NCBI RefSeq assembly: GCF_003367505.1
Contig: NZ_PXXX01000022.1
Span: forward strand, 17,625 to 57,624
DNA: 40,000 nucleotides
Direction of reading: 5' to 3'
DNA from: Lysinibacillus capsici
Lineage (GTDB): Bacteria > Bacillota > Bacilli > Bacillales_A > Planococcaceae
Shown here: piece after piece, positions 1 through 38,759 of the stretch
Position numbering within the stretch: position 1 is the stretch's first letter
How the letters are laid out: each line of letters begins with the position of its first letter
The notes under the pieces: generated by a model
Seen by the model: only the letters and a program-made list of their open reading frames with translations
What the model was told of the DNA's origin: nothing
Databases searched by the model: none
Position numbers and translations under genes: made by a program

Positions 1-366
1 ATGAGAGTCTACTACGCTAGTATGACGGGAAATGTCCGACGATTCATCCAAAAAACTGGATTAGATACAACTGACATTTCATGTAATCCAAATCCGAAAG
101 AGCCGTTTGTACTCGTCACATACACTTTCGGATTTGGCGCAGTACCAAAAGAAGTTGACGCTTGGTTGACGCAAAATTATAAGTTATTAAAAGGGGTAGC
201 TGTTAGTGGTAATCGTAACTGGGGCGATAACTACGGAAAAGCTGGTGACTTAATAGCTCGAAAATATAACGTACCTCTATTACACAAATTCGAGTTAGCA
301 GGTACAGACGAAGATGTACAAATTTTTAACGAAAGGTTGCTGATGGTTTGCGATACTACGAATTAA
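1..366 (+). CDS. nrdI: NrdI-like flavodoxin, ribonucleotide reductase class Ib accessory protein
   Basis: 121 aa, MRVYYASMTGNVRRFIQKTG FMN-binding-like start and TYTFGFGAVPKEV; directly upstream of nrdE/nrdF. May begin at the window edge. Confidence 0.9.
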   Translation: MRVYYASMTGNVRRFIQKTGLDTTDISCNPNPKEPFVLVTYTFGFGAVPKEVDAWLTQNYKLLKGVAVSGNRNWGDNYGKAGDLIARKYNVPLLHKFELAGTDEDVQIFNERLLMVCDTTN

Positions 367-2429
367 ATAACGAAATAATGCTACAAGGCGATAAAGATAT
401 TTACCAATATGAAAAAGATCAAGAAGCTACACGCGCTTATTTTTTGGATTACGTTAATAAAAAGACAATGTTTTTCCATAACTTACGTGAAAAACTTAAT
501 TACTTATTTGAAAACAATTATTACGAACAAGAATTATTCGATCAATACACATTTGAACAAGTAAAAGCAGTCTATAAACGTGCTTATGCAAAGAAATTCC
601 GTTTTCCTTCTTTCATGTCCGCGTACAAGTTTTATAATGACTATGCGTTAAAGACAGATGATGGAGAATGTATTTTAGAACGTTATGAGGACCGAGTTGC
701 AGTAAATGCTTTATTCTTTGCGAAAGGTGATCCGCAAAAGGCGATTGATTACGCGGACTTGCTTATCGAACAAGAATATCAACCAGCGACACCAACATTC
801 TTAAATGTTGGACGAAAACGTAGAGGCGAATTAGTGTCTTGCTTCTTAACAGAGGTAGGTGACAGTTTAAATGATATTAATATGGCGGAATCAACTGCAA
901 AACAACTCTCGAAGTTAGGCGGTGGCGTCTCATTAAACTTATCTAATATCCGCGCCAAAGGTGAAGCCATTAAGGGCATTAAAAACGTTGCTAAAGGCGT
1001 CGTAGGCGTTATGAAAATGCTTGACCATGCTTTCCGGTATGCAGATCAAATGGGTACAAGACAAGGTGCTGGAGCAGTTTATTTAAATGTATTCCACGCA
1101 GACATTAACGATTTTCTTGATACGAAAAAAATTAGTGCTGATGAAGATGTAAGAGTAAAAACACTATCTATTGGCGTTGTTATCCCAGATAAGTTTATTG
1201 AACTTGCTCGTGATAACAAACCAGCATATGTTTTTTATCCACATACTGTTGAGAAAGCAACAGGCGAACGGTTCTCCGATATTGACATATCAGCACGATA
1301 TGACGAATTAGTAACTAATTCTGCAATCCGAAAAGACCGTGTTAATCCTCGTCAATTGCTTGAAAAGATTGCAGCATTACGCTTTGAGTCTGGCTATCCG
1401 TATATCATGTTTAGCGACAATGTAAATAAAACACATGCTTTAAATGGCACGATAAAATTCTCTAATCTATGTAGTGAGATACTGCAACGATCTGAACAAT
1501 CTACTTATACAGATTACGGACAACAAGATGAAATAGGGTTAGATATTTCTTGTAATTTAGGGTCGTTAAATATTGCGAATATCATGCGATTAAAAGACTT
1601 CGAACGTGCAGTATCATTAGCAACAGATGCCTTAACAGTTGTGTCAGAATCAACGAATATTGCTAATGCTCCAGCAGTTTCAAAAGCCAATAAGGAAATG
1701 CGTTCAATTGGTTTAGGAGCTATGAATTTACATGGTTATCTTGCGAGTGTAGGTATTAGTTACGAAAGTCCAGAGGCGATCGAATTTGTAGATGTATTTT
1801 TTGCAGCAGTCAACTATTACTCTATTAAACGATCAATGGAATTGGCAAAACAAAAAGGGTCTGTATTTACTGGGTTTGAACAATCGAGTTATGCAGATGG
1901 TAGTTACTTTAAATCCTACTTAAACAATAGTTATTTGCTAAAAGACGAGTATATCAAATCATTATTTGACGGGATCGTGCTACCAACAACGGAGGACTGG
2001 CTAGAGTTAGCTTCTGATGTAGCTAAGTATGGCTTATATAATGCTTATCGCCTTGCAATTGCTCCAACAGGTTCAATAAGCTACGTACAATCAGCGACAG
2101 CAAGTGTTATGCCGATTATGGAACGGATTGAAGAACGTACTTATGGCAATTCAAAGACATACTACCCGATGCCTAACCTCTCTTATAAAACGTGGGCTTA
2201 CTACAAAGAGGCGTATGAAATGGACATGCGCAAAGTCGTCGATTTAATTGCAACGATTCAACGCCATATAGATCAAGGCATTAGTTTTACGTTATTCTTA
2301 CGTGACACAATGACAACACGCGATTTAACAAAGATTGATTTATATGCGCATCACAAAGGAATTAAGACGCTTTACTATGCACGAACAAAAGATACGGGCG
2401 CAGATATTTGTCTAGCGTGTCAAGTTTAA
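348..2429 (+). CDS. nrdE: Class Ib ribonucleoside-diphosphate reductase alpha subunit
   Basis: 693 aa with PATPTFLNVGRKRRGELVSCFL, SNLCSEI, APTGSISYV and C-terminal CLACQV motifs; probable TTG start overlapping nrdI. Confidence 0.96.
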   Translation: MRYYELNNEIMLQGDKDIYQYEKDQEATRAYFLDYVNKKTMFFHNLREKLNYLFENNYYEQELFDQYTFEQVKAVYKRAYAKKFRFPSFMSAYKFYNDYALKTDDGECILERYEDRVAVNALFFAKGDPQKAIDYADLLIEQEYQPATPTFLNVGRKRRGELVSCFLTEVGDSLNDINMAESTAKQLSKLGGGVSLNLSNIRAKGEAIKGIKNVAKGVVGVMKMLDHAFRYADQMGTRQGAGAVYLNVFHADINDFLDTKKISADEDVRVKTLSIGVVIPDKFIELARDNKPAYVFYPHTVEKATGERFSDIDISARYDELVTNSAIRKDRVNPRQLLEKIAALRFESGYPYIMFSDNVNKTHALNGTIKFSNLCSEILQRSEQSTYTDYGQQDEIGLDISCNLGSLNIANIMRLKDFERAVSLATDALTVVSESTNIANAPAVSKANKEMRSIGLGAMNLHGYLASVGISYESPEAIEFVDVFFAAVNYYSIKRSMELAKQKGSVFTGFEQSSYADGSYFKSYLNNSYLLKDEYIKSLFDGIVLPTTEDWLELASDVAKYGLYNAYRLAIAPTGSISYVQSATASVMPIMERIEERTYGNSKTYYPMPNLSYKTWAYYKEAYEMDMRKVVDLIATIQRHIDQGISFTLFLRDTMTTRDLTKIDLYAHHKGIKTLYYARTKDTGADICLACQV

Positions 2430-2441
2430 GGAGGATTCTAC

Positions 2442-3401
2442 ATGACTATTTATACGGCTGCGAACTATGCGGTAGATGACGACTCATTTACCCAGGCTTT
2501 TTTAAAGCAGAATCATTCACAATTCTGGCTACCCGAAGAAATATCGCTAACACCCGATTTATTGACTTGGAAAGCTCTTTCAAAAGAAGAACAAAAAGCA
2601 TATATGCGTGTACTTGGAGGATTGACTTTACTTGATACAGAACAAGGAGTTGGTATACCTCGATTAATTCCTCATATTAAAGGGCATCAACGACAAGCGT
2701 TGCTTACCTTTATGTCAGCAATGGAAAACTCGGTCCATGCCAAGTCGTACTCTAACATCTTCTTAACTTTGGCAAATCGTGAGGAAATTAAAGAAGTATT
2801 CGATTGGGTACGGGAAAATCAGTATTTGCAAACAAAAGCTGACGTTATTGTGACGCAATATAAGGCAATCAAAAACAATGATGATATTTCACTTTATAAG
2901 GCGCTAGTTTCGTCAGTATTCCTTGAATCGTTCTTATTTTACAGTGGTTTCTACTACCCACTGTATATGTACGGACAAGGAAAATTAATGCAGGCTGGGG
3001 AGATCATAAACTTAATTATTCGTGATGAAAGCATACATGGTGTCTATGTCGGTTTATTAGCGCAAGAAATCTATAACCGACACTCATCAGATGTACAAAG
3101 CGAATTGTCTGCGTGGGTACATGAGACACTCGAAAAGCTATATCAGAACGAGGCGTTATATACAGCAGACATTTATGATGATGTCGGTTTGACATACGAT
3201 GTACTTAATTTCGTTCAGTACAACGCAAATAAGGCATTATCTAACTTAGGATTTGACGCTTATTACACACATGACAACTTTAATCCAATCGTTTTAAACG
3301 GACTATCAACGAAAACAAAATCGCATGATTTCTTTTCAATGAAAGGTAATGGGTATAAAAAAGCAACTGTCGAACCAATTCAAGACTCGGACTTCTATTA
3401 G
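2442..3401 (+). CDS. nrdF: Class Ib ribonucleoside-diphosphate reductase beta subunit
   Basis: 319 aa, E/H metal ligand pattern ([22 protein letters not shown]), adjacent to nrdE. Confidence 0.95.
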
Positions 3402-3415
3402 AAAGGAACGATTCT

Positions 3416-3670
3416 ATGGTAAAAGACATCGAGCATCCCGATATAACGCACGCATTGCGAACAGGCCATGATCGGGAAACCTGGCGTAATATACAAAACG
3501 CAAAGCTGCTTACGGAATCAGTACCACGTGATTATTACGGAGACATTATTGACTTAAAGAACGACCATTACGTCGTGATTCCGACAGGCTATAAGATATT
3601 GCACAGTAACTTACAACGTTATTTGGAAGAAAGAAAAGGCTTCGAATTTAATTACGTATTCAGCGATTAG
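3416..3670 (+). CDS. Hypothetical protein
   Basis: 84 aa ORF tightly packed in the operon with an upstream GAAAGGA RBS. Confidence 0.7.
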   Translation: MVKDIEHPDITHALRTGHDRETWRNIQNAKLLTESVPRDYYGDIIDLKNDHYVVIPTGYKILHSNLQRYLEERKGFEFNYVFSD

Positions 3671-3681
3671 GAGGAAAACAC

Positions 3682-4335
3682 ATGGGACTGCCTAAAGATA
3701 CGATGTTATACGGATTTGCTGAAAAATTGACGCGAGAACAATGTGAGTATGTCGATAGTATTTTTGATAATCAAGTAACGATTGTAAACGCAAAGGCTGG
3801 GAGTGGTAAGACTACACTTGCAGTTGCCTGCGCAGCACTACTCGGAAAACCTCTCGTATATATTTTCGCTCCAGTCGAGGAAGGCAAGATGGGTTTTCGT
3901 CCAGGTACTCAACGTGATAAAGAAGCTGAATACTATCAACCATTAATTGACGCTCTATATGAAATCGGCGAGAATCCGTCAAAAGTAATCTATGATGCTG
4001 AAAATATCGAAGCACAAAAGCGTGGCGACGTTTGGGTGTATCCTCGGAGTCACATCTTCGCTCGCGGGACGAATATCAAGGATTCGACGGTGATTATAGC
4101 TGAGGCCCAGAATTTTACGCGAGGTGAACTTAAAAAGGTCCTTACGCGAATTCATGATAGCTGTACGGTAATTATCGAAGGACATGACGGCCAGAACGAC
4201 TTGCCAAATCCGAATAAGAGTGGATTTGTACCGTATATCGAACATTTAGCAGCTTATGAATTTGTAAATGTCGTGCGGTTAAAGAAGAACTTCCGAGGTC
4301 GTTTATCGACTATTGCGGATGAAATGACTTGGTAG
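3682..4335 (+). CDS. PhoH-like ATPase
   Basis: Walker A AKAGSGKTTLA, FAPVEEGKMGFRPGTQRDK, IIAEAQNFTRGELKKVLTRI. Confidence 0.9.
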   Translation: MGLPKDTMLYGFAEKLTREQCEYVDSIFDNQVTIVNAKAGSGKTTLAVACAALLGKPLVYIFAPVEEGKMGFRPGTQRDKEAEYYQPLIDALYEIGENPSKVIYDAENIEAQKRGDVWVYPRSHIFARGTNIKDSTVIIAEAQNFTRGELKKVLTRIHDSCTVIIEGHDGQNDLPNPNKSGFVPYIEHLAAYEFVNVVRLKKNFRGRLSTIADEMTW

Positions 4336-4347
4336 GAGGGGATTTCA

Positions 4348-4560
4348 ATGAAACGGTATACAATTGGCTTAAACGTAAACGATTCGTCAGAATTATTACA
4401 AGCAGCTACGGACATTCAAGCGTTCATTGATACGTTAGGTGTCGCAAGTGAGCTAGACATACAAGTGAGTGTTAATCCGTTATTGTCACAATCTGAAAAT
4501 ACTAACGTTATCGGGTTTGCGATGAAAACTGAGGAAGATTACGAGGAGGATGAAGAGTAA
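4348..4560 (+). CDS. Hypothetical acidic protein
   Basis: 70 aa ORF, GGAGGG RBS, stop overlaps start of next gene. Confidence 0.65.
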   Translation: MKRYTIGLNVNDSSELLQAATDIQAFIDTLGVASELDIQVSVNPLLSQSENTNVIGFAMKTEEDYEEDEE

Positions 4561-4973
4561 TGAACGAACAACAAGCACAAAAAATCGAGAGAGTGGCAAA
4601 AATGTCGCCAATTAACGATAAACTAACAGAAATGTATGATATGCAAACGAAACTAGACCAACGCATTATTACCGAGCGAGGTATATCAAAAACGACTGAC
4701 GAGTGGGTGGTCGGATTAACTATCGCAATGGAATCTGAGATTGACGAGATTCGTCGCGAGGTTAATTGGCGTTGGTGGAAAAATAGTAAGCCGATTGATC
4801 AAACTGCTTTGCAAGAAGAAATCGTGGACGTGTGGCACTTCTTATTATCTCTTTCTAGAGTAGTCGGAATGTCTCCGGACGATATTCATCGCATTTACAT
4901 GGAAAAGAACGCTGAAAATCACGCAAGGCAAAGTGGTACTAGCGAAAAGGAAGGGTATGAGGTATCGAAATGA
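4560..4973 (+). CDS. dUTPase_2/MazG-fold nucleotide pyrophosphatase (dimeric dUTPase-like)
   Basis: ESEIDEIRREVNWRWWK and EEIVDVWHFLLSLS, all-alpha NTP-PPase motifs. Confidence 0.85.
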   Translation: MNEQQAQKIERVAKMSPINDKLTEMYDMQTKLDQRIITERGISKTTDEWVVGLTIAMESEIDEIRREVNWRWWKNSKPIDQTALQEEIVDVWHFLLSLSRVVGMSPDDIHRIYMEKNAENHARQSGTSEKEGYEVSK

Positions 4974-5344
4974 GTGGATGTCCGAATGAATTCGGTATTT
5001 ACAGCAGAATGGTGACTTTAAAAATGCCAAATCATCTCTTTAAAAAGAACGGTGGGTACTATGTTGATAAAACGGAGTGCGATATTGACCAATGTTTAGT
5101 TGATGAAATCCGATTCTTATGGAGTAAAGGAGTTGTCACAACAGGTTCTTGTTGTGGACATGGAATAAATCAAGGAATGATTAATGTGTTAGAGTCAAGC
5201 GTAAATAAAATGATTGAATTAGGTTATGAATTACTAGACATTCCAGAGCCTTTCTGGAAATATTCGTTTATACCAAAATCTAAACACAAACAGGAGAAAC
5301 TCAATGACGAAAATCGAACGCAAAATAAACGTACTAGACGATAA
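4970..5344 (+). CDS. Hypothetical protein, Cys/His-containing
   Basis: 124 aa ORF, ATGA overlap with upstream gene; VVTTGSCCGHG motif; its 3' end overlaps thyX. Confidence 0.65.
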   Translation: MSGCPNEFGIYSRMVTLKMPNHLFKKNGGYYVDKTECDIDQCLVDEIRFLWSKGVVTTGSCCGHGINQGMINVLESSVNKMIELGYELLDIPEPFWKYSFIPKSKHKQEKLNDENRTQNKRTRR

Positions 5345-6032
5345 AGGGTATGTAATGATCCACGATGTACTTGGAACAGATTTAACGGTAGCAAATGCGG
5401 CTCGCGTAAGTTACGCAAAGAAGTCCGCAACATTGACCGATGGTGATAAGCGATTAATAGACTTTCTAGCGCGGGAGGGGCATACTTCGCCCTTCCGCCA
5501 CGTGATCGCACAATTCGAATTTAATGCGCCATTGATGGTCGCTAGGCAACATTGGAAATACGTTGTAGGATCGTCAATGCTCGAAGCTACTGGAGATAAT
5601 ATGGATGCTTGGAACGAATCGAGTCGTCGTTATGTAACGGAAGAACCGACATTCTACGTACCACAGCCATATGAATGGCGATCAGCACCAGAAAACAGTA
5701 AACAAGGTTCAGGCGATATAGTTCGTTTTGAAATTGGAGAATCTGCAACAAGTGCGCTCATACAACATGTTGATGTATGCATTAAATTGTACGAGGACGC
5801 TATTTCTAGCGGAATTTGTGCTGAGCAAGCACGCCTATTCTTGCCAGCATACGGAATGTACGTTAAATACTACTGGACAGCATCGTTACAAAGCGTCTGT
5901 CACTTCCTAAATCAGCGTTTAGCTCATGATTCTCAAGTTGAGATACAAATGTATGCGAAGGCAGTTCTTGAACTTATAAAACCGCATTTTCCGATCAGTG
6001 TTGAAAAATTAGTATCGGAGACTTCCGAATGA
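5304..6032 (+). CDS. thyX: Flavin-dependent thymidylate synthase
   Basis: ThyX-type RHxxxxFxxN..RQHWKYVVGSSM, SSRRYVTEE, FLPAYGMYVKYYWTASLQSVCHFLNQRL. Confidence 0.93.
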   Translation: MTKIERKINVLDDKGYVMIHDVLGTDLTVANAARVSYAKKSATLTDGDKRLIDFLAREGHTSPFRHVIAQFEFNAPLMVARQHWKYVVGSSMLEATGDNMDAWNESSRRYVTEEPTFYVPQPYEWRSAPENSKQGSGDIVRFEIGESATSALIQHVDVCIKLYEDAISSGICAEQARLFLPAYGMYVKYYWTASLQSVCHFLNQRLAHDSQVEIQMYAKAVLELIKPHFPISVEKLVSETSE

Positions 6033-6703
6033 AAAAACTATACGCGTCAGCTATGGCGCTACTCATCGCTGTTACTTTATTTATCTACTTATATAAACCA
6101 CAAGATCATGAACAGCTTTCCGAAAGTCCCACCGTACGCAATTTAGAACACGTAGAATACAATGGATTTAACGCAATATACACGCAAGTTCTTGAAAAGA
6201 AACGCCTACAAGCCGAATCAGAACGAAAAAAGAAACGTCAACAGGCGTTAGAAGAAGCACATAGACTATACCACGCTAAGATTGCAGAGGAAAAGCGTAC
6301 AAGGCAAGAAGAAAAAAGACGAAATGAACTAAAACGAAAAACACAAGAACAAGTAAGTCGAAATGACGACGTTCAACTGACGCAATTATCGATGATAGCA
6401 ACGCACTACACGTCGACATGTAATGGGTGTTCTGGAATAACTGCCACTGGCTATGATGTGCGCCAAACCATATATGCCGAAGGATTAAGAGTGATTGCAG
6501 TTGATCCGCGAGTGATTCCACTAGGTTCAATAGTGCGCATTGATTACCCTAATGGTACTTCGTTTAAGGCTATTTGTGCTGATACAGGTGGGGCAATTAA
6601 AGGACATAAGATTGATGTACTTGTTTCAAACATTAATGAGGCTTACTCATTAGGAAAACAAACAGTAACAGTAACTATACTTAAAAACGGAAAGGGACGA
6701 TGA
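6029..6703 (+). CDS. 3D (Asp-Asp-Asp) domain cell-wall-associated protein, YorM-like
   Basis: N-terminal TM segment, charged linker, C-terminal TGYDVRQTIYAEGLRVIAVDPRVIPLGSIVRI...ADTGGAIKGHKIDV. Confidence 0.88.
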   Translation: MKKLYASAMALLIAVTLFIYLYKPQDHEQLSESPTVRNLEHVEYNGFNAIYTQVLEKKRLQAESERKKKRQQALEEAHRLYHAKIAEEKRTRQEEKRRNELKRKTQEQVSRNDDVQLTQLSMIATHYTSTCNGCSGITATGYDVRQTIYAEGLRVIAVDPRVIPLGSIVRIDYPNGTSFKAICADTGGAIKGHKIDVLVSNINEAYSLGKQTVTVTILKNGKGR

Positions 6704-6706
6704 TAC

Positions 6707-7183
6707 ATGGTAAAAGCACAGGAAGGCGATTTGATTCGAATTGTTTCAGTACCAGAAGATTGGTCGTACGATGTTGGAGGAATTTATGAGGTAATTAGTA
6801 TTTCAAACGAAGGCTATCCTCGATTTTACATCGATGATACCGAAGATATTTATTATGCACTACCTGGACAGTATATGATTCATCGCAAAGCTGGCGAAGA
6901 AGATGATCGAGACAAATTAATACCAAGAGAAGTCGCAATTAAAAACGCTGCAGACGCTTTAGGCGACTTAATAATCCGTAAAAATCACGATTACGGAGAT
7001 AGTTTCTCGCAACAGTACGATAAATACGGACTTATGAGCGCTTTAATCCGAATGGATGATAAACTGCGTAGGTTAGAGACTTTACAGGGCGGAGACAAAG
7101 CGAAAGTCAGCGAAAGCATTTCGGATACCCTCTTAGATTTAGCTGGATATGCATTGTTGACATATGTAGAGACGCAGAAATAA
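6707..7183 (+). CDS. DUF1599 / nucleotide modification associated domain 1-like protein
   Basis: RKNHDYGDSFSQQYDKYGLMSALIRMDDKLRRLETL...SISDTLLDLAGYALLTYVE. Confidence 0.75.
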   Translation: MVKAQEGDLIRIVSVPEDWSYDVGGIYEVISISNEGYPRFYIDDTEDIYYALPGQYMIHRKAGEEDDRDKLIPREVAIKNAADALGDLIIRKNHDYGDSFSQQYDKYGLMSALIRMDDKLRRLETLQGGDKAKVSESISDTLLDLAGYALLTYVETQK

Positions 7184-7421
7184 CGTGAATTAAATATGAT
7201 TAATAGCCAACCTAGCGGAATAAAGCCGTGATGGTTGGCGAGTTTTGACGTTTAGGGGGACTCATTTTGGTCAGATACATTGCTCAAGATGCGTATAACC
7301 AGGCAATATACTTTTCTGGAGAAATAACTACTTGCATAACTACTAACGTAGGGAAACGTGGCAGGAACGGTATAAATATTATAGAGCTTTACGAAATAAA
7401 TGAAATGGAGGACTTTATAAT

Positions 7422-8928
7422 GCCGTATGTTAAACATAAGAAAGAAAAAGAAGAAATTATTATTAAGTCTTTCACTTACGCATCAGCATTCGCAGGTATC
7501 GGCGGCATGACTCTCGGACTTAAACCGTTAGGTGGCGAAGGAGTTATCGCATGGGAATATGATCCGACAGAAAAGCGACGCCAATACGCACAGGACGCTC
7601 ACAAACTGTTGCATCCTGAAATACCCATACATGGAGACATTTGCGAAGCTAATACAGATGAGTTACCCGACTTTGACGTATTCTGCTTTACTCCGCCATG
7701 CCAAGCGTTTTCAGTTGCTGGCAAACGAGGCGGATTCGATGATACTCGCGGTACACTCACATTTGAGGCGTTACGAATAGCACAAGCGAAAAAGCCGAAG
7801 ATTCTCTTTATGGAAAACGTTAAAGGTCTCGTAAATCATGATAAAGGGAATACGATGGGGACTATTATTCACGCGATTAATGAAATCGGCTATACAGTCG
7901 ATTTTACCGTTTTAAATTCGAAATACTTTGATGTAGCGCAGAATCGTGAACGCGTCTACTTAATCGCATTTAGAGACGATTTAATCTCGCCAGAGCCGTG
8001 GAATGACGTAAAGGGTACTACAATGCTGCCGAAAGCAAAGCGTCGTTATCAGGAAGAGGGCGCAAGAACGTTTAATTTCGATTGGCCAGAGCAAACGGAA
8101 GTACTAACTAGGTTGCGTGATTTCTTAGAGCCTATCGTCGATGAAAAGTATTATATTGACGAGGAAAAAACGGCTAAGCTAGTTGCGCAGTTAGAAGAAA
8201 AGGCGGATGGAATCGTGATTAGAGAGGCGACTAACAAGGGCTACGCCGTAGCTGCGGAGGGAGACGCCGTTAATATTCAGTTCCCTAACAGCAAAACTCG
8301 CAGAGGACGCGTGGGTAAGCAGATGGCTAATACGCTAGAGGCGAATGGGTGCAATCAAGGCGTTGTGGAGCGTATTGAACAGTTCTCTAAAGGAGACGGA
8401 ATAAGCTGTTGTATAGACGCAAATTATGCGAAAGGTACATCACCTGGAGACGTCGGTAAAGGACGTCGTACACATATCGTAGAAGATTCTCCGATAATGC
8501 TCGGTCATATCGACTTAAAAGGTCACGACGCTATTAAGAGGGTTTACAGTCCGACAGGGCAAGGCCCGACATTAACGACTATGGGCGGAGGACATCGTGA
8601 GCCAAAAATTGTAGAAGAAATTCGTCCAGTATTAACACCAGAACGCCTTGAAAAACGTCAAAATGGACGTAGATTCAAAGAGGACGGAGAAGAATCATTC
8701 ACACTCACGTCTATTGATCGACATGGCGTAGCAGTCGGAGAATATCCGAAATATCGAATCCGCAAGCTAACTCCGCGAGAGTGCCTACGTCTGCAATCCG
8801 TTCCAGAGGACATTATTGACGCTTTATCAACGCATTTTAGCGACAGTCGTTTATACCACTTTGCCGGAAATGGCCTCACAACAAAGGTAATTACAGCGAT
8901 TGGCGAACGCTTAATTAAGTATTTATAG
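7422..8928 (+). CDS. DNA (cytosine-5-)-methyltransferase
   Basis: FAGIGGMTLGL, CFTPPCQAFSVAGKRGG, ENVKGL, QNRERVYLIAF, RKLTPRECLRLQ, GNGLTTKV. ORF track opens at 7267, but ATG at 7422 has an upstream GGAGG and better fits the family start. Confidence 0.94.
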
Positions 8929-8950
8929 TGATAAAGCAGCAAGCGATTGC

Positions 8951-9544
8951 CTACTGCTTAAAGATAACGACATTCCCACTAAGTGACGCAGTATCGGCGT
9001 AAAACGTCTGTCCTTCGAATTTCTCTAAATTAAATTGGTTGAAAAGTTTGGCAGCAGTAATGTCTTTCCGATTACTTACGAAGTAACCTGCGGAACGCAT
9101 TTCTTCACTCAATGAAGGTGCAGAAGGCTTAACGATAGCAAAAGCCTGATCTACAGGATTGAACGCAATAAGGACGCGTGAACGTGGTTTAATACCTAGT
9201 TGGGATAATATATCGCCCTTTAGATATAGCCGATTACGCTTACCAACATAAATTTGTGACATACCTTTATTCGGAACAAACGTGAAGCCAGCGAGCAATT
9301 GCGCTTCTTCATCGTCAAACTCCGTTGAAGGAACGGGCTTAAAGTGATATTCGAGTGTTCGGTCAAGCTCCGCACAATATGCGTCAGCTTCTCCAGGCTC
9401 GTTAAGAGTAATCATCGGATAAAATTCGTCTTTAAATTCGATACCTGCGATGTAAGTATCTGCGACCGTATCACAATATGATCGTGCTGATTCATCGATT
9501 TTAGGCAGTAATTCATCAAGCGTATAAAATTTCGCAACAGTCAT
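8951..9544 (-). CDS. Hypothetical protein with possible AbrB-like C-terminal segment
   Basis: 197 aa reverse-strand ORF between forward operons; good RBS (GGAGGTGTGACTT). Confidence 0.7.
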   Translation of the reverse strand: MTVAKFYTLDELLPKIDESARSYCDTVADTYIAGIEFKDEFYPMITLNEPGEADAYCAELDRTLEYHFKPVPSTEFDDEEAQLLAGFTFVPNKGMSQIYVGKRNRLYLKGDILSQLGIKPRSRVLIAFNPVDQAFAIVKPSAPSLSEEMRSAGYFVSNRKDITAAKLFNQFNLEKFEGQTFYADTASLSGNVVIFKQ

Positions 9545-9840
9545 AAGTCACACCTCCGTGTTTTTATATGTGAAAGAACGTCATATTTACGTTTTTGATA
9601 AGGATATTATATCAAAAAGAAAACGCAATATCAACGCAAAAGGACATCAAAAGCAAGGAGGAAATGGAATATGGGACCGAAAATACCCGCCGTCAGACTT
9701 ATTTCACTGTATTCCTATCGAAAATAGAGAGCGATATATGGGCAAGTATCACGACATCTTTACTCTAATTAGCCTTATTTATCTAATTTAAGAAAATTAG
9801 ACTCTTTAATCTAAATTACGCAAATATAAGGAGGAAGTTT

Positions 9841-10191
9841 ATGAAAACACGAAAATCAACCGCAAAAGCGATTTTAACGAATTTGCATGCACTACGACAA
9901 CGCAGATATGTCGGAGATTTAGATGCTAGCGATACGCTAATTGACTTTGAAAGAGCGTGTCAGATGGCGAAATTGACGAAAAGGCAGTTTGAGGCTATTC
10001 GATTTGTATATGACATCGGATTGACGCAGAAGGAGGCTGGTGAGCGAATGGGAATTGGTCAAGACGTAGTAAGTTCTCATATTGATGCTTCTGCGACTAA
10101 GCTAGATGAGATATACGAAATGTGGGCATGGATGGACGCTGAATTGACGTTAAAAGGTTTTAAAGGTGTGGGGGAAAATGCTACATGCTAA
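9841..10191 (+). CDS. Sigma-70 region 4-like transcriptional regulator
   Basis: LTKRQFEAIRFVYDIGLTQKEAGERMGIGQDVVSSHID helix-turn-helix; GGAGG RBS. Confidence 0.8.
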   Translation: MKTRKSTAKAILTNLHALRQRRYVGDLDASDTLIDFERACQMAKLTKRQFEAIRFVYDIGLTQKEAGERMGIGQDVVSSHIDASATKLDEIYEMWAWMDAELTLKGFKGVGENATC

Positions 10192-10559
10192 CTAACCAAG
10201 ACATGCACAACGAAATTTCATCTGCATTTACCCGTTTTAAAAAAAGTAAGACTAACCGTCAAAATCGTATTGAATATGTAGCAAAACTGACTGAAAGATA
10301 CTTTCTTCAACATGAGAAAATGCCTGCAACACATGTGCTAGATCGCATGGCTACGTTAATATTGCAAGATGAATTGGCGGATATAGACCGTATGAAGATG
10401 CGTAACACAGAATACCCACTTCTTAGTGAGACTCAAGAGTTATACCGTAAAAAAGATGAACGTTCACTAAAAGCTGCACAAGATGTAGCAACAGACGGTG
10501 TTGATTATCGTATTAGAACACGTGATAGTAATCGTCGTATGCGTGAAGTGTTTGGATAA
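10185..10559 (+). CDS. Hypothetical protein
   Basis: 124 aa ORF overlapping upstream CDS, followed by a terminator. Confidence 0.65.
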   Translation: MLTNQDMHNEISSAFTRFKKSKTNRQNRIEYVAKLTERYFLQHEKMPATHVLDRMATLILQDELADIDRMKMRNTEYPLLSETQELYRKKDERSLKAAQDVATDGVDYRIRTRDSNRRMREVFG

Positions 10560-10578
10560 TATTTGGATATAATCGTTT

Positions 10579-10607
10579 AAGACTACCTTTTGGTAGTCTT
10601 TTTTTTG
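10579..10607 (+). terminator. Rho-independent terminator
   Basis: GACTACC-TTTT-GGTAGTC followed by TTTTTTTT. Confidence 0.92.
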
Positions 10608-13065: not shown

Positions 13066-13437
13066 ATGACTAAATTAAACGATAAACAAATTGCTGCTAT
13101 TACGATACTAAGTCAACCGAAACGTGGTGGGCTTACTTATAAAGAAGTTGCAGAGGAAGTTGGAGTAGCAGAGTCAACACTGCATTTGTGGCGCAAAAAT
13201 GACGCATTTAATGAAGAACTAAAGCGACAGATTATGCGTGATACGATTGATAGATTACCAGAAGTAATGGCGTCTATACCTGATCATATTATTAATGACG
13301 GCAATGCAGCGTTATTCAGAACGTTATTACAAGCGCATCAAATGCTAACAGAGAAAGTTGAAGTGTCAGACGGTAATAAAGGTACAGATATTGATGCGAT
13401 TAAGGCAGAGATTGAACGTATGAGAAAAGGTGAGTGA
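13066..13437 (+). CDS. Terminase small subunit-like (helix-turn-helix, phBC6A51-type)
   Basis: LNDKQIAAITILSQPKRGGLTYKEVAEEVGVAESTLHLWRKNDAFNEEL; AAAGGA RBS; upstream of the large terminase. Confidence 0.82.
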   Translation: MTKLNDKQIAAITILSQPKRGGLTYKEVAEEVGVAESTLHLWRKNDAFNEELKRQIMRDTIDRLPEVMASIPDHIINDGNAALFRTLLQAHQMLTEKVEVSDGNKGTDIDAIKAEIERMRKGE

Positions 13438-14102
13438 TTGGGAGAAACTCCGAAAAGGGGAATGAATAGTCTATTTATATAGGAAGAAACTATGAATAGT
13501 AGACGAATTGGTGTACGAGCGGTTCGGAGTGTGTAGTGTGGTTTATTGGGCAACAGCCGAGAATGGACGCGTACCTAAAACGCTTTGAAAGATAGGGTGT
13601 ATATGGATAGTATAGAGGCGGTAGGATATGCAGGATTTTATACAAATATAAGAGAAATCGCTATCCGATTACTATTAGTAAGTGTACGTAAATAGAGGGA
13701 TTATGGCGTGTGTATAAGAATTTGCATACGCTTATTTTACCTACAAAAGACAAACGTTGATATATCAATGGTTGAAGATAAATCTATTTTACATAATTAA
13801 GCTTATGGGAAGTTAGAAACGAATAATTATTCACTCACTATTCAATGCGTTAAATAAACGTTAATGATTTGAAATTCTCCCAAGCCGCCTATTTTCAAAT
13901 CGCTGTTTCTGATGGCAAACAAATCAGCGCACCAAAATTTCACTTTGGTCTTACGGAAAGCAACCGTTAATTTGTATCATTGTTTAACGGTTCTAACGTA
14001 GCCTACACGTCGTTCTGCGTAATCAAAAGATAAAATATAAGGAACGTATTTAAAACGCTAAATAAACGCGAATAAACAGCTAAAATGAAAGGAGGCGCTA
14101 AT

Positions 14103-15866: not shown

Positions 15867-17453
15867 ATCGGACTATTTAGAAAGAACGACAAAGAAATGC
15901 AAGAAACGGGAACTGTCACCTACACATATGACGCATTTAAACCTGGCGAACAATTTCCGCCAGCTAACGCAATTGAACGTATAGCAAAGTATCGACGTAT
16001 GAAAAAGTTATATGACGGAAAACAGTCCGAACTATATGATAGAGCAACAGCGCTCCTAAAAGATACGCCACATGCTAAACAATTACAGTCACTCTATATT
16101 GCAGCCAATATTGCCGACATCATTGTTACGAAAGCAAGTGATTTACTTGTCGGAGAACCACCAATCTTCGATAGCGGATTAGCAGACGATACGGAGCAAC
16201 AATTTGCAATTAACTCCTACGTTGAGGAAAACGATCTTGTTAAGTTAATTCACGAATCTGCGCTTGCTAATGGTTATCGTGGCGATTCATGGATTAAAGT
16301 TCGTTACGACTATCGCCAGGACTATAGCGCTCTAACAATGAGAGGCCTACCTATCCCAGACGATGCGGTAATGGAGCCTATTATCGAACATATTGCCGCA
16401 GACTGTGTATTCCCAATTACAAGTGACGGTAACGTGAAGAAGTTTAAGTCAGTAGTCATTGCAAGCGTAGAATGGGTAGTTTCTAAAAAGGAAGAAACAC
16501 CGTACTTAAACGTTGAGCACCACCTGCCAGGCTATATCATTAATGAGCGATATAAACTTACGACTTATGAAGGTGGAGTTGACAACAAATACGGCTATCC
16601 AGTACAGCTTTTCTTAATTGATAAAAAGGTCAGCGATAGCGAAATTGTTCCGACAGGAGTTCCGCACTTACTCGTTCATCACATTCCATATAAATCAACG
16701 GACGACCAATGGGAGGGTAAAGGAACATTAGAAGTGCTAGAAACGATTTTAATTGCGATAAATGACCGATTAGCGCAGCTCGATTATGTTCTATGGAAGC
16801 ATAGTGATCCGACAGCGTATGGACCAGAACTAGGGACGCATGGTAACGCAAGATTAACAGGCGCTTATATTCCTTTAACTGCCGAAGATAAAACACCAGG
16901 CTATATGACGTGGGATGGACAGTTGAATAGTGCATTTAAAGAACTTGAAACATTGATTGGCATGGCGTTTCAAATCGCAGAAACTCCGCAATGGCTATTC
17001 GGTACTGTACTTGGAGATCAAAACGCTGGAGGAACAGGCACATCGCATACAGATGGCGCTGCTATTAAAGCGCGCTTTATGCCAATATTGACGAAAGTAG
17101 CTCGTATTAGAACGCACTACGACCGCGCTCTACGAGATGCACTATATAACTGCCAATTGCTTGATATAGCGCATGGCGAAGCTAATTTCGAAGCAGTCTA
17201 TCCGGTTATTCACTGGCAAGATGGCTTACCTCATTCCGAAAAAGAGCAAGCCGAAATTATGGCAATTCGTACTGGCAATAAGCCGACAATTGACGTAGCT
17301 ACAGCGATTAAACGTATGGACGGTGTAGACGACATTCAAGCTACCGAAATCATGACGCGGATTGATGCCGATACAGAGCGTGAAGTTGGTACAGTCGATG
17401 CTTCCATCTTTAATGACCCTTATACAGAAATGGACGAAGGGACTGACGCCTGA
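15867..17453 (+). CDS. Portal protein (SPP1 gp6-like)
   Basis: LYIAANIADIIVTKASDLLVGEPPIF, WLFGTVLGDQNAGGTGTSHTDG. Possible ATC start at 15867 (MGLFRKNDKEMQ...); otherwise ATG 15897. Confidence 0.9.
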   Translation: MGLFRKNDKEMQETGTVTYTYDAFKPGEQFPPANAIERIAKYRRMKKLYDGKQSELYDRATALLKDTPHAKQLQSLYIAANIADIIVTKASDLLVGEPPIFDSGLADDTEQQFAINSYVEENDLVKLIHESALANGYRGDSWIKVRYDYRQDYSALTMRGLPIPDDAVMEPIIEHIAADCVFPITSDGNVKKFKSVVIASVEWVVSKKEETPYLNVEHHLPGYIINERYKLTTYEGGVDNKYGYPVQLFLIDKKVSDSEIVPTGVPHLLVHHIPYKSTDDQWEGKGTLEVLETILIAINDRLAQLDYVLWKHSDPTAYGPELGTHGNARLTGAYIPLTAEDKTPGYMTWDGQLNSAFKELETLIGMAFQIAETPQWLFGTVLGDQNAGGTGTSHTDGAAIKARFMPILTKVARIRTHYDRALRDALYNCQLLDIAHGEANFEAVYPVIHWQDGLPHSEKEQAEIMAIRTGNKPTIDVATAIKRMDGVDDIQATEIMTRIDADTEREVGTVDASIFNDPYTEMDEGTDA

Positions 17454-18733
17454 TGCGTGAAGTACCTCAGCCAGATTACGATTATGATGTTAAAAAGATA
17501 CAAAAAGCTTATACAAAAGCATTAAAAGACGTAAAAAATGAACTTAATAACTTATTTCTTACGGATTTCGAGAGCGCGCAGATCATCGCCGTTGAAAAGT
17601 CTATCCGTAACATATTATCCGACATTGAAAAATACGGAAATGAATGGTCTGCCGTCGCCATAACTAAATCAGCAACAGAAGGTATCGCATCGACTATTTA
17701 TACTTTAGAGCTTACTAAGTCTTATGAGGATGCTCTTAAAATTGTAAAATTTAATACGGTAAATAAACGACTTATTGCTGCAGCTATAGCAGATACTCAG
17801 TCAGATTTACTCGCAATAACGCAAAACATGGAGCGACAAGCAAAGATAGCAATTAGAAAAGCAACGGCCGAAGCCATGCGCGCTAAACTTACGTCTGGTA
17901 TTAACGCTACATCTGACATATCAAAAGAGATACGGGAACGTATCATTAATGCCACCGGCGTTGCGATTATTGACTCTAGGGGGAATCGATGGAAAGTTGA
18001 AAACTACGCAGATGTAGTCGCCAGAACTAATATGATGAACGCGCATCGCGAAGCAAGTATTAACGAAGCGTTATCGGAAGAGTCTTACTATGGTCGAATT
18101 AGTCGTCATGGAGCTAAGGACGCTTGCAGAGAATATGAAGGTAAAATCGTAAAATTAGTAGCAGATGCACCTGGAGATTACCCTTACATTGGCGATATAC
18201 CAAGAAAAAAACTGTTCCATCCTCGTTGCAAACATTTGGTCAGCCCTTTGCGTGATCCAGAGAAGTATAATAACCCAAACGTATGGGAGAAAAAACCAAC
18301 AGAATCAACACTTAAACATGCTAATCTAGGAGACTTTACGATAAAACCTCGCACACAAGAGATTTCTAAAATGAAAAGTGGAGGGCATGGTCAAGATAAT
18401 ATTAGTTTCTTAAAAGAAAATAATATTGATTACAATATTGAAAAGATTTTTTCTAACGGAGTTCGCATAGGTAACGTTCCTAGTCATAAGTCTAAAACAA
18501 AGAAAACTGGAGTAGGGCAGTCATGGTTTCCTGAAAATTGGACTAAAGATGATATTGAAAAAGCAGGTTTACATGTAGCCAACAATCCTGATAATAAAAT
18601 TGTTAACGGATTTCAAATATTTGGCGTTTACAAGAATATTGAAATTGGTGTATTTTTAAACTTAGACAATAATAAAGTTATCAGTACTATTTTCCCTACA
18701 AATAAGCAATCTCATTTAGAGGAAGGTGATTAG
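17453..18733 (+). CDS. Phage minor head protein (MuF/SPP1 gp7-like) fused to a C-terminal EndoU-like nuclease domain
   Basis: MuF region TNMMNAHREASINEAL...HPRCKHLVSPLRDPEKY; C-terminus GGHGQDNISFLKENNIDYNIEKIFSNGVRIGNVPSHKSKTKKTGVGQSWFPENWTKDDIEKAG...TIFPTNKQ resembles bacterial EndoU. Confidence 0.88.
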   Translation: MREVPQPDYDYDVKKIQKAYTKALKDVKNELNNLFLTDFESAQIIAVEKSIRNILSDIEKYGNEWSAVAITKSATEGIASTIYTLELTKSYEDALKIVKFNTVNKRLIAAAIADTQSDLLAITQNMERQAKIAIRKATAEAMRAKLTSGINATSDISKEIRERIINATGVAIIDSRGNRWKVENYADVVARTNMMNAHREASINEALSEESYYGRISRHGAKDACREYEGKIVKLVADAPGDYPYIGDIPRKKLFHPRCKHLVSPLRDPEKYNNPNVWEKKPTESTLKHANLGDFTIKPRTQEISKMKSGGHGQDNISFLKENNIDYNIEKIFSNGVRIGNVPSHKSKTKKTGVGQSWFPENWTKDDIEKAGLHVANNPDNKIVNGFQIFGVYKNIEIGVFLNLDNNKVISTIFPTNKQSHLEEGD

Positions 18734-18735
18734 AT

Positions 18736-19038
18736 TTGATTAACACAGGTAACATTACGAATATTATTGAGAAAATGAAAAAATTGCACATAAACGATCC
18801 CGCAATCGAAAATTATTGGAATCAGTTGGTTTTAGAATTTAATGATGAAAAAGAAACAATTCATTTTTTGGATACATGTACCGAAGAAGAAGCTTCTTGG
18901 ATTTCATCAATTTTTGACGACTTGGCACACGTATTTCAAAGTAAAGAATACGCTGATTGCCTCAAAAGACTTGATAAAAAATATCCTAATTTACTAATAT
19001 CGCTCGATATAGAAATAGCAGAATCTTATCTTTCTTAA
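18736..19038 (+). CDS. Candidate immunity protein for the MuF-EndoU toxin
   Basis: 100 aa acidic ORF, 2 nt after the toxin stop, GGAAGGTG RBS, WISSIFDDLAHVFQSKEYADCLKRLDKKYPNLLISLDIEIAESY. Confidence 0.75.
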   Translation: MINTGNITNIIEKMKKLHINDPAIENYWNQLVLEFNDEKETIHFLDTCTEEEASWISSIFDDLAHVFQSKEYADCLKRLDKKYPNLLISLDIEIAESYLS

Positions 19039-19039
19039 A

Positions 19040-19076
19040 ACCGCACTCTGAGAAATAAATGAGTTGCGGTATTTTT
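19040..19076 (+). terminator. Terminator-like hairpin after candidate immunity gene
   Basis: ACCGCACTC ... GAGTTGCGGT followed by ATTTTTAT (one bulged T). Confidence 0.75.
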
Positions 19077-19153
19077 ATGTCCGAACGGAAAGGACGTTAA
19101 ATAATAACGGAAACTACAGCCTACGTAGGCTCAAAAAACGGAGGTAATACGCT

Positions 19154-36652: not shown

Positions 36653-36902
36653 CTGGAAAGTACGACTTCAACATAAACAATTTTGGGTATCATTAATTGC
36701 ATTACTACTTGTGCTTGCGAATCAAATCGCAGGCATTTTTAATGTCGATATTACAATTTACAATGACCAATTTACAGCTATTTCAGAGACGATTCTAAGC
36801 ATTTTAGGATTACTTGGTATTATTATTGACCCAACCACAAAAGGGGCGTCAGACAGTCTAAAAGCGATGTATTATGACAAACCAAAGGATGATGCAAAAT
36901 GA
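36642..36902 (+). CDS. Phage holin
   Basis: INWKVRLQHKQFWVSLIALLLVLANQIAGIFNVDI...GLLGIIIDPTTKGASDSLKAMYYDKP, typical of phi LC3-type holin. Confidence 0.9.
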   Translation: MKINWKVRLQHKQFWVSLIALLLVLANQIAGIFNVDITIYNDQFTAISETILSILGLLGIIIDPTTKGASDSLKAMYYDKPKDDAK

Positions 36903-37567
36903 CGAGCATTACTACTACATGCCGTGATATTTTGGAGTTATTACCTGCTGCACAAACTGCCTGTCGATTGTTGTTTCAGGAGTGTTTTAAAGCAGGTATT
37001 AAGAACATTTTTATTACTGAAACATATCGCTCACAGGAACGACAAAAGTACCTCTATGAACAAGGTAGAACGCGTCCTGGTAATATCGTTACTTGGACAT
37101 TAAACAGTAATCATAATTCACGTCTAGCATGGGATATTGCTGTTGGCCCTCCAAAGTCTTTATATGATGTAACAACATTAAATCGAGTGGGTGCAATTGC
37201 ACGAAAGCTGGGTATTACATGGGGTGGTGTTTGGTCAGCCCAAATTGACCGTCCTCACTTTGAAGTTAAACCGAATTGGATTATGCCAAAGGGATACAAA
37301 ATAGAAGGACAAGTGATCATTCCAACAACAAGTAAATATCCAGTGCAATTAATTGTGGAAAGCAATACAGCTAAACCAATAACAAAGGATGATGACGTTA
37401 TGAAATTTACTAATGAAACACTTAAATCTGCAGTTCGGGATTACCTCAAACAAGCAGTAGACAAAAAACTTATTGATAAATCACATCTTGAAAAATTTGA
37501 TGCTGGTACATTAACCGATGGTGATTTTAAAGGTTTAGAAATTATCATTGCACAACGTAGTAATTAA
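36899..37567 (+). CDS. Endolysin, M15-family L,D/D,D-peptidase
   Basis: ITETYRSQERQKYLYEQGRTRPG...SNHNSRLAWDIAVGPP...ITWGGVWSAQIDRPHFEVKPNW. Confidence 0.9.
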   Translation: MTSITTTCRDILELLPAAQTACRLLFQECFKAGIKNIFITETYRSQERQKYLYEQGRTRPGNIVTWTLNSNHNSRLAWDIAVGPPKSLYDVTTLNRVGAIARKLGITWGGVWSAQIDRPHFEVKPNWIMPKGYKIEGQVIIPTTSKYPVQLIVESNTAKPITKDDDVMKFTNETLKSAVRDYLKQAVDKKLIDKSHLEKFDAGTLTDGDFKGLEIIIAQRSN

Positions 37568-38235: not shown

Positions 38236-38759
38236 TAAAACCTAGGACTCATCATACATCACGTAGAGCATGGGATGTTGCAGTAGCGCCACCAAGAAAT
38301 TTATATGATATTTCAACTTTATCAAAGGTAGGGGCAATTGCTAAAAAGTTAGGTATTACATGGGGAGGATATTGGCAAGCAGGACAGAATGATGCTCCAC
38401 ACTTCGAAATTCCTACTACTTGGAAAATGTCTGCTGGATATAAACTCGAAGGTCAAGTTATAGTACCGATAAGTAGTTCTGTAAGAGTGCAACTTATTGT
38501 AGAGGATAAACCACAACAAACTGAAGAGGATGATGACATTATGAAATTCACTAGCACAACTACAAAAGCTGCAGTACGTGACTATATTCAACAAGCAGTC
38601 TCTAAAGGGTTAATTGATAAATCTTGGTTGGAGAAATTCGATAATGGCACAATAACAAGTGGTGATTTTGAAGGATTGAAATTCTCATTGCACAACGTAG
38701 CGCTTAACAGAAAAGAGCCCAGATACTCAATTATTTTTGAGGCCTGGGCTTACTTTTAG
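38236..38759 (+). pseudogene. 5'-truncated and 3'-frameshifted copy of the M15 endolysin
   Basis: Reading frame THHTSRRAWDVAVAPPRNLYDISTLSKVGAIAKKLGITWGG...HFEIPTTWKMSAGYKLEGQVIVPISSS...DYIQQAVSKGLIDKSWLEKFDNG parallels 36899-37567; catalytic N-terminus is missing. Confidence 0.83.

Follow-up and report, generated by a model that had tools for sequence, protein, structure and literature searches.

A probable MuF-EndoU polymorphic toxin with a candidate cognate immunity gene among the head genes of a Lysinibacillus-type phage

A 40,000-nucleotide (nt) stretch of DNA from Lysinibacillus capsici (RefSeq assembly GCF_003367505.1, contig NZ_PXXX01000022.1, positions 17,625 to 57,624 of the forward strand), called the window here, contains a gene whose predicted product joins a MuF-type minor head protein to an EndoU-type RNase domain and which is followed almost immediately by a 100-amino-acid (aa) open reading frame (ORF). 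We consider it probable, at about 0.72, that this locus is a MuF-family polymorphic toxin gene with its immunity gene in a head-morphogenesis operon. A toxin-immunity arrangement had been proposed in an earlier reading of the sequence made without database searches, and it was supported here by the domain architecture, the position of the gene directly after the portal gene, the small downstream ORF, and the synteny of the pair across phages and other delivery systems.

The toxin gene and its EndoU domain

The toxin ORF that the sequence-only reading had delimited at 17453..18733 (+ strand, ATG start, 426 aa) was recovered exactly, and the motifs quoted from its translation, HPRCKHLVSPLRDPEKY, GGHG, NGVRIGNVPSHK, GQSWFPENWT, and TIFPTNKQ, were all present. 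The N-terminus had been described as "SPP1 gp7/MuF-type," which holds for the superfamily and can be refined for the family: Pfam assigned aa 42-236 to PF06152 (Phage_min_cap2; E=4.7e-9, 36.1 bits, cut-off 26.3), not to PF04233. PF06152 is MuF2, which forms one superfamily with PF04233, where SPP1 gp7 and Mu gpF are placed (PMC5576092). Of the MuF superfamily domains that could be sought at the N-terminus (PF04233, PF06152, MuF3, or MuF4), it was PF06152 that was found. PHROG 4611, "minor head protein," covered aa 4-290 (E=3e-42), and a linker of ~25 aa connects the MuF and EndoU domains. The two genes have the following features.

17453..18733, + strand: probable MuF2-EndoU polymorphic toxin gene (ATG start, 426 aa; identified from ORF, Pfam, and PHROG evidence)
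17453..18270, + strand: MuF minor-capsid domain, aa 1 to ~272, with 73-92% DNA identity to relatives, most of which end there
18344..18700, + strand: EndoU_bacteria RNase domain, aa 298-416, with H312, H345, K350, T352, and T412, and with H289 just upstream
18720..18729, + strand: Shine-Dalgarno sequence AGGAAGGTGA, inside the last toxin codons
18736..19038, + strand: candidate cognate immunity gene (TTG start, 100 aa, isoelectric point [pI] 4.5, six predicted helices)

The EndoU-like character claimed for the C-terminus was borne out by the Pfam search, in which PF14436 matched aa 298-416 (E=1.6e-12, 48.3 bits, gathering cut-off 25.3) over profile positions 16-128 of 129. The C-terminal domain is basic (pI 8.8), has a size of 14 kDa, and contains no cysteine. 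When 35 EndoU homologues were aligned, G310-G311-H312-G313-Q314 (GGHGQ), N335, V337, R338, G340, K350, and W358-F359-P360 were invariant, H289 and H345 were near-invariant (at least 90% of the homologues), and every invariant column was kept in the window's domain. T352 and T412, the latter in the final TIFP strand, were conserved by eye and were not among the computed invariant or near-invariant columns. Judged from sequence, the conserved EndoU set of His, His, Lys, and Ser/Thr is intact. By their spacing, H289, H312, K350, and T352 would align best with H162, H178, K224, and S229 of XendoU, and H345 may be specific to this EndoU clade; which two histidines are catalytic is a choice that we infer from the alignment.

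An AlphaFold2 (AF2) model of the C-terminal domain had a predicted local distance difference test score (pLDDT) of 91.5 and the order helix, two strands, helix, three strands, helix, three strands, which closely resembles the listing for PDB entry 5HKQ, the EndoU-type toxin CdiA-CT(STECO31) with its immunity protein CdiI. Among the predicted viral structures of BFVD, the best structural match was a coronavirus pp1ab (replicase 1ab) fragment (probability 0.99, template modeling [TM] score 0.53, E=8.6e-3), which probably contains the Nsp15 EndoU domain. YxiD/YxxD was also considered as a relative and was rejected, as YxiD is an Ntox50 protein with a beta-rich immunity protein.

The same EndoU clade was found on several kinds of carrier, namely MuF1 and MuF2 proteins, PT-HINT giants, and a Moraxella hemagglutinin-cluster protein. 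No match to the EndoU C-terminal domain was found by tblastn in 50,697 GenBank phage records, and the clade is therefore known only from prophage, metagenome, and IMG/VR data. In the IMG/VR loci L018-L022, an ORF at 3905-4423 encodes a 172-aa EndoU protein that stands alone: no MuF-sized ORF directly precedes it, and an ORF of the immunity family follows; its N-terminus, MGS..SGRY, is shared with many short matches.

The candidate immunity gene and its family

The small ORF had been reported to be acidic, to encode 100 aa, and to start 2 nt after the toxin stop, and all of this was confirmed (TAG at 18731-18733, TTG at 18736). It is thus a short ORF (<150 aa) directly downstream of the toxin gene. 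The Shine-Dalgarno sequence ends 6 nt before the TTG and, because it lies inside the last toxin codons, the two genes are translationally coupled. On two metagenome contigs, automatic gene calling placed the start of the small ORF at ATG 18775 instead (87 aa). We favor the TTG at 18736 because of the strong Shine-Dalgarno sequence, because homologues with an annotated length of 100 aa conserve the first 13 residues, and because the relative L064 has an ATG exactly at the equivalent position. The AlphaFold model of the 100-aa protein consisted of six helices (pLDDT 93.6).

A word-based search with the immunity protein returned four close clusters only, all from Lysinibacillus. An exhaustive HMMER search of clusters at 50% identity was more productive: among the 150 best-scoring cluster representatives, at least 67 were ~100-aa proteins that matched the immunity part of the profile; this profile included the toxin part of an in-frame fusion, P0007, and its 678 matches, a mixture of EndoU toxins and immunity proteins, were split by profile position. 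An alignment of 53 members showed a well-conserved immunity family. Pfam searches of these 53 members gave scattered chance matches only, NCBIfam had no match to the immunity protein, and the PDB had none to the family, either by profile or sequence search or, with the AF2 model, by Foldseek at E<=0.001. The sole library match of the 100-aa protein was to PHROG 19054, "unknown function" (E=2e-5). Neither in sequence nor in fold did it match SUKH, SuFu, Imm28, or CdiI-STECO31. As judged by sequence searches and predicted structure, the family is widespread, all-helical, and absent from Pfam and NCBIfam.

The association of this family with the EndoU clade was evident in viral and nonviral loci alike. 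An IMG/VR scan with the EndoU alignment yielded 53 viral loci, of which 50 had room for a downstream gene; in 43 of these 50, an immunity-family member lay directly downstream on the same strand, and members occurred nowhere else in the loci. The remaining 7 carried a different small acidic ORF that overlapped the toxin stop. All 10 of the 10 toxins scanned from the IMG/VR loci consisted of MuF1 (PF04233) or MuF2 (PF06152) followed by EndoU. On Moraxella bovis plasmid pMBO-1, a toxin cluster with hemagglutinin repeats encodes a 778-aa EndoU protein that shares 45% identity with the window's protein in the C-terminal domain, and an immunity homologue (30% identical) lies 12 nt after its gene. 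An immunity homologue was also present in an immunity array of Bacillus velezensis, after an LXG toxin gene and that toxin's own immunity gene. P0007 (L008 4199-4861) is an in-frame fusion of a truncated EndoU domain, which lacks the last strands, with an immunity homologue; its neighbors are an Endonuclea_NS_2 fragment and a YezG-like immunity gene, and the locus looks like an orphan cassette array. The 100-aa protein family tracks the EndoU clade across MuF1, MuF2, and the Moraxella hemagglutinin-type locus. Because the toxin domain and the small protein travel together across unrelated delivery scaffolds, we read them as a polymorphic toxin-immunity pair.

Several further arrangements were observed. 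Loci L035, L038, L041, L047, L048, and L056 have a MuF-EndoU gene followed by an acidic ORF of ~87-106 aa (MWKELRKLI...DDPRYKGEHP...) that was missed by the immunity-family hidden Markov model (HMM); these ORFs either form a very divergent branch of the family or belong to another immunity family that serves this toxin clade. P0174 is another in-frame EndoU-immunity fusion. P0125 (317 aa) and P0200 (401 aa) each have three separate matches to the immunity profile, as if the immunity domain had been triplicated in tandem within a single chain.

The cassette, its phage, and immunity-only elements

The toxin domain and the candidate immunity gene lie in a low-GC segment whose edges could be placed by comparison with L062, a relative that encodes a short MuF protein and forms its own 63.5-kb record (CP189808.1) in the L. 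xylanilyticus assembly GCA_050209885.1. DNA homology with L062 ends at 18270 and resumes at 19130, such that 859 bp of the window replace 59 bp. The GC content of the cassette is ~0.30, with the EndoU part at 0.31 and the immunity gene at 0.30, compared to 0.40-0.43 in the flanks. The cassette and the nearby features of the head module are listed below.

13066-13437: terS, in the head module, followed by terL
15897..17453, + strand: SPP1-type portal gene (PF05133, E=9.5e-8)
18271..19129, + strand: inserted low-GC cassette of 859 bp, with the linker, EndoU, the immunity gene, and a 3' hairpin
19040..19070, + strand: terminator-like hairpin and then AUUUUUAU (U-run), at the 3' end of the cassette (-12.2 kcal/mol, z = -2.5)

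The closest MuF relatives (60-81% identical) are ~274 aa long and toxin-less, and most come from ~60-kb phage contigs of Lysinibacillus and from metagenomes; EndoU was found among the closest relatives only in P0268 (92%, L. xylanilyticus) and P0312 (68%). DNA identities were measured segment by segment against L063 and L009, with the following results.

Portal: 77%
MuF domain: 92%
EndoU: 96%
Immunity gene: 97%
3' intergenic region: 100%
Scaffold: 78-80%
Major capsid protein: 84%

Because these identities differ between segments, the block made up of muf, toxin domain, and immunity gene was recently exchanged between diverged phages. On this sequence evidence, the toxin-immunity block is a horizontally acquired cassette. 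L064 and the satellite-like element L004 described below retain the stem of the 3' hairpin, although the loop differs.

The window reads almost entirely on the + strand, as a 40-kb segment of a phage genome. The head module has the order terS, terL, portal, muf-toxin, immunity, scaffold, and SU10-type major capsid protein, and beyond the major capsid gene follow tail sheath, tape measure, and endolysin. The toxin gene thus lies directly after the portal gene in the packaging/head module, as is found for MuF toxins; the stop codon of the portal gene shares 1 nt with the start codon of the toxin gene (TGATG at 17451-17455), and the MuF domain is presumed to dock on the portal. Window positions 1-10600 hold early and metabolic genes for NrdI, NrdE, NrdF, PhoH, a nucleotide pyrophosphohydrolase, and thymidylate synthase, as well as genes for a DUF1599 protein, a 553-aa DNA methyltransferase, and a sigma-70 region-4 protein. 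The source is roughly described as the head-morphogenesis operon of a contractile-tailed Lysinibacillus-type phage of ~55-64 kb, and the window's phage looks like a self-sufficient phage of ~60 kb. Its relatives in isolate assemblies were separate contigs or replicons of 56-64 kb, which suggests that such phages may persist in a carrier state or much like plasmids. Neither GenBank phage records nor PLSDB plasmid records gave a megablast match to the head module.

Between terS and terL, the window has a 650-bp non-coding spacer (13438-14084). The surroundings of the terminase genes are a variable hot spot where relatives carry differing small genes and the window carries none; these genes, at 519-1043 (-) in L062, 7580-8104 in L063, and 763-1338 in L064, encode a 174-aa tyrosine-recombinase-like protein, a 174-aa Cys/His-motif protein, and a 191-aa resolvase. 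The endolysin gene lies at window 36899-37567 (PHROG 6523), and a 110-aa ORF at 38427-38759, ~900 bp past it, matches only the C-terminal part of the endolysin family; between the two is a minus-strand 156-aa ORF of no assigned function. From 37 kb on, the GC content of the window falls to 0.32-0.33.

Copies of the immunity gene that are free of any toxin remnant, and whose products are 66-82% identical to the window's protein, were found in several genomes, with toxin-less copies in Bacillus, Listeria, L. fusiformis, and Solibacillus. A scan of the genome collection with alignment A2 gave two loci only, both of them orphan immunity genes. One orphan gene resides in a mini-element of ~10-12 kb that is conserved in L. 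fusiformis and in Solibacillus cecembensis DSM 21993. It occurs in L. fusiformis CP104728.1 and CP070490.1 and in metagenome contigs, and copies besides L004 are L003, L005, L006, and L068 (Solibacillus cecembensis LMBZ01000003.1). Its location and components are as follows.

L004 1-12303: mini-element in L. fusiformis, CP104728.1 2143594-2155896
Replication initiator: 35% identical to that of the window's phage
Helix-turn-helix regulator
SU10-type major capsid protein: 53% identical to that of the window's phage
Immunity gene, plus a 107-aa ORF
Tape-measure protein: ~50% identical to that of the window's phage
terS: 29-32% identical to that of the window's phage
Small tyrosine recombinase: in L003 and L068, not in L004

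Genes for terL, portal, MuF, and sheath were not seen in the mini-element copies. A 180-bp non-coding segment by the mini-element terS (L004 10283-10465) is 75% identical to part of the window's terS-terL spacer (13711-13889) and may be a packaging or regulatory site common to both. In the mini-element, terminator-like hairpins flank the immunity gene on both sides, and a promoter-like site lies upstream of it. Altogether the mini-element looks like a phage satellite that depends on the phage group of the window. A decayed prophage is the alternative, counter to which the element is conserved across two genera, as random decay would not predict. It is possible, although we hold it to be doubtful, that the orphan immunity genes are the first genomic footprint of virion-borne MuF-toxin delivery. 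If this were true, satellite DNA packaged in the capsids of MuF-EndoU helpers would arrive in a poisoned recipient and need the antidote to become established, and MuF toxins would both hinder and exert selection on all DNA carried by such capsids.

Proposed mechanism, alternatives, and significance

In the mechanism that we propose, the MuF part would bind the portal, and a few copies of the toxin would be built into each procapsid, by analogy with SPP1 gp7, which is sent to the procapsid via the portal, is present there in small numbers, and helps infection to begin (PMC6316719). The toxin would then leave the capsid with the DNA at infection, and its EndoU domain would cut RNA in the recipient cytoplasm without a need for metal, as other EndoU toxins do. 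The likeliest target would be a tRNA anticodon loop, as for CdiA-CT(STECO31), and translation would be arrested unless the immunity protein were already present. The acidic immunity protein would bind the basic toxin 1:1 and block its active site, which would guard the producer during late expression as well as any cell or element that carries the gene. Virion delivery of this kind was proposed for the MuF class by Zhang 2012 (PMC3482391) and Jamet 2017 (PMC5576092), and PMC6316719 likewise presents it as a hypothesis.

The sequence-only reading had also stated that MuF polymorphic toxins are an already described class, and this is so: EndoU_bacteria is a known MuF cargo, and MuF-EndoU toxins were catalogued in both of these papers. 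With that class the locus shares the MuF2 domain, the post-portal gene position, the small downstream ORF, the Firmicute phage setting, and a C-terminal toxin domain common to other polymorphic toxin families. It differs in that the published link is to temperate phages and prophages, whereas the window lacks lysogeny genes and the phage's relatives are separate ~60-kb replicons. No name or description of a cognate immunity family was found in the literature on the MuF-EndoU class. The Apk2 MuF toxins with IapK/Aph1 immunity have the same delivery scaffold and gene layout, but Apk2 is a (p)ppApp synthetase (nucleotide pyrophosphokinase) with unrelated immunity proteins, whereas the window's toxin is a predicted RNase; in the literature covered, toxicity and neutralization by immunity were shown only for these (p)ppApp-synthetase MuF toxins (PMC12226406, PMC10083569, PMC11699363). 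Jamet 2017 also cites an ADP-ribosyltransferase, the EFV toxin, as toxic in yeast (PMC5576092).

CdiA-CT(STECO31) is likewise a bacterial EndoU-type polymorphic toxin, neutralized by a dedicated immunity protein; as described by Michalska 2018 and summarized in a later paper, it is a metal-independent RNase with two alpha/beta subdomains and His-His-Lys(-Thr) chemistry, the active site being H187, H204, K261, and T262 (PMC9086364). It differs from the window's toxin in being delivered by type V secretion and not on a capsid protein, and the two show neither profile similarity nor a significant Foldseek match. CdiI(STECO31) is mixed alpha/beta, whereas the window's immunity protein is predicted to be all-helical. 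SPP1 gp7 and Mu gpF belong to the same superfamily and occupy the same post-portal position, but they are PF04233 proteins with no toxin domain, whereas the window's protein consists of PF06152 and a 154-aa extension. SUKH, SuFu, and Imm28 (Zhang 2012, PMC3482391) resemble the window's immunity family in being small and directly post-toxin and in having orphan copies and immunity arrays; unlike them, the window's family has no consistent Pfam match and no PDB match.

A number of observations weigh against the proposed toxin-immunity function or the EndoU assignment on which it draws. The His-His spacing is 23 or 33 residues, compared to the 12-18 reported as typical for EndoU, and because it is longer than typical, the catalytic assignment is uncertain. 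Foldseek against the PDB gave no match to the toxin AF2 model at E<=0.001, with TM scores below 0.3 for the best BECR-like matches (RelE and a CdiA-CT), and phmmer and profile searches of the PDB with the C-terminal domain missed 5HKQ, XendoU, and Nsp15. Because these PDB searches were null, the EndoU assignment is based on the Pfam HMM, the topology, and one BFVD match. The terminator-like hairpin lies in the middle of a late operon, for which we found no explanation, and a promoter scan for the immunity gene gave 10 sites versus 6.9 expected in this AT-rich stretch, such that no internal promoter for its expression during lysogeny stood out from chance. No integrase, repressor, or excisionase gene was seen in the 40-kb window, and the phage has its own ribonucleotide reductase (RNR), ThyA, PhoH, methyltransferase, and sigma factor in the window. 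Published surveys tie MuF toxins to temperate phages and prophages (PMC5576092), and given such temperate-only reports the absence of lysogeny genes from the window is unusual. Finally, no experiment that supports toxicity, neutralization, presence in virions, or injection was found in the literature on MuF-EndoU proteins.

Some of these observations would be expected if the virion EndoU served the phage's own infection cycle and were not an inter-bacterial weapon. It might shut off host translation, degrade host or defense RNA at entry, or bias the choice between lysis and persistence, and the small protein would later switch EndoU off and let late phage translation proceed. The poor lysogeny equipment, the phage's own RNR, ThyA, and sigma factor, and the cotranscription of the immunity gene with late genes, which fits lytic self-protection, are all compatible with such a role, and Jamet 2017 suggests an influence on the lysogeny decision (PMC5576092). 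However, the closest relatives lack EndoU, which places the domain outside the core infection program; orphan immunity genes in chromosomes and satellite-like elements imply selection to resist an incoming toxin; and polymorphic toxin loci outside phages contain this toxin-immunity pair as well. We therefore judge a role confined to the phage's own cycle to be unlikely. An addiction (toxin-antitoxin-like) module that stabilizes an extrachromosomal prophage by killing cured cells is much less probable still. Separate replicons of ~56-64 kb such as CP189808.1 are compatible with a plasmid-like prophage, but a toxin fused to a head protein in a late operon is not expected to be on in a quiescent prophage, neither a labile antitoxin nor an autoregulated promoter was apparent, most related replicons are without the cassette, and PADLOC and toxin-antitoxin-type families gave no match.

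The 100-aa ORF could in principle be a head-assembly accessory protein or chaperone gene that merely adjoins muf, as it lies between muf and the scaffold gene, a usual place of small accessory ORFs, and its product has no recognizable domain. Against this, the ORF is absent from close relatives wherever EndoU is absent, its family follows a capsid-unrelated EndoU toxin on the Moraxella plasmid, and homologues occur in the B. velezensis LXG immunity array and fused to a truncated toxin, so that an accessory role seems to us highly improbable. There is similarly very little to commend the view that the EndoU domain has decayed into a remnant without catalytic activity. Remnants abound in polymorphic toxin loci, and this clade has truncated copies, namely P0007, L059, and a number of short "partial" proteins, but the window's domain is full length relative to the Pfam model and keeps all invariant columns, its DNA identity to independent phages is 96% compared to 77-84% for the diverged flanking genes, and an intact immunity gene still stands beside it.

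With a MuF-family polymorphic toxin and immunity gene as the preferred reading, the locus adds an example to a described class and leaves the picture of that class unchanged; what is new here is that the cognate immunity family has been defined, the edges of the cassette placed, and elements described that carry the immunity gene alone. MuF toxins are common among Firmicute prophages, and no demonstration of their delivery by virions was found in the literature covered. The locus offers a compact nuclease-type example, with a 14-kDa domain and a 100-aa antidote, in a culturable host genus, and the immunity family (at least 67 clusters at 50% identity) can now be recognized in genomes. The natural immunity-only elements provide a handle on whether the toxin reaches recipient cells, and the locus thereby makes the natural role of MuF toxins easier to address.

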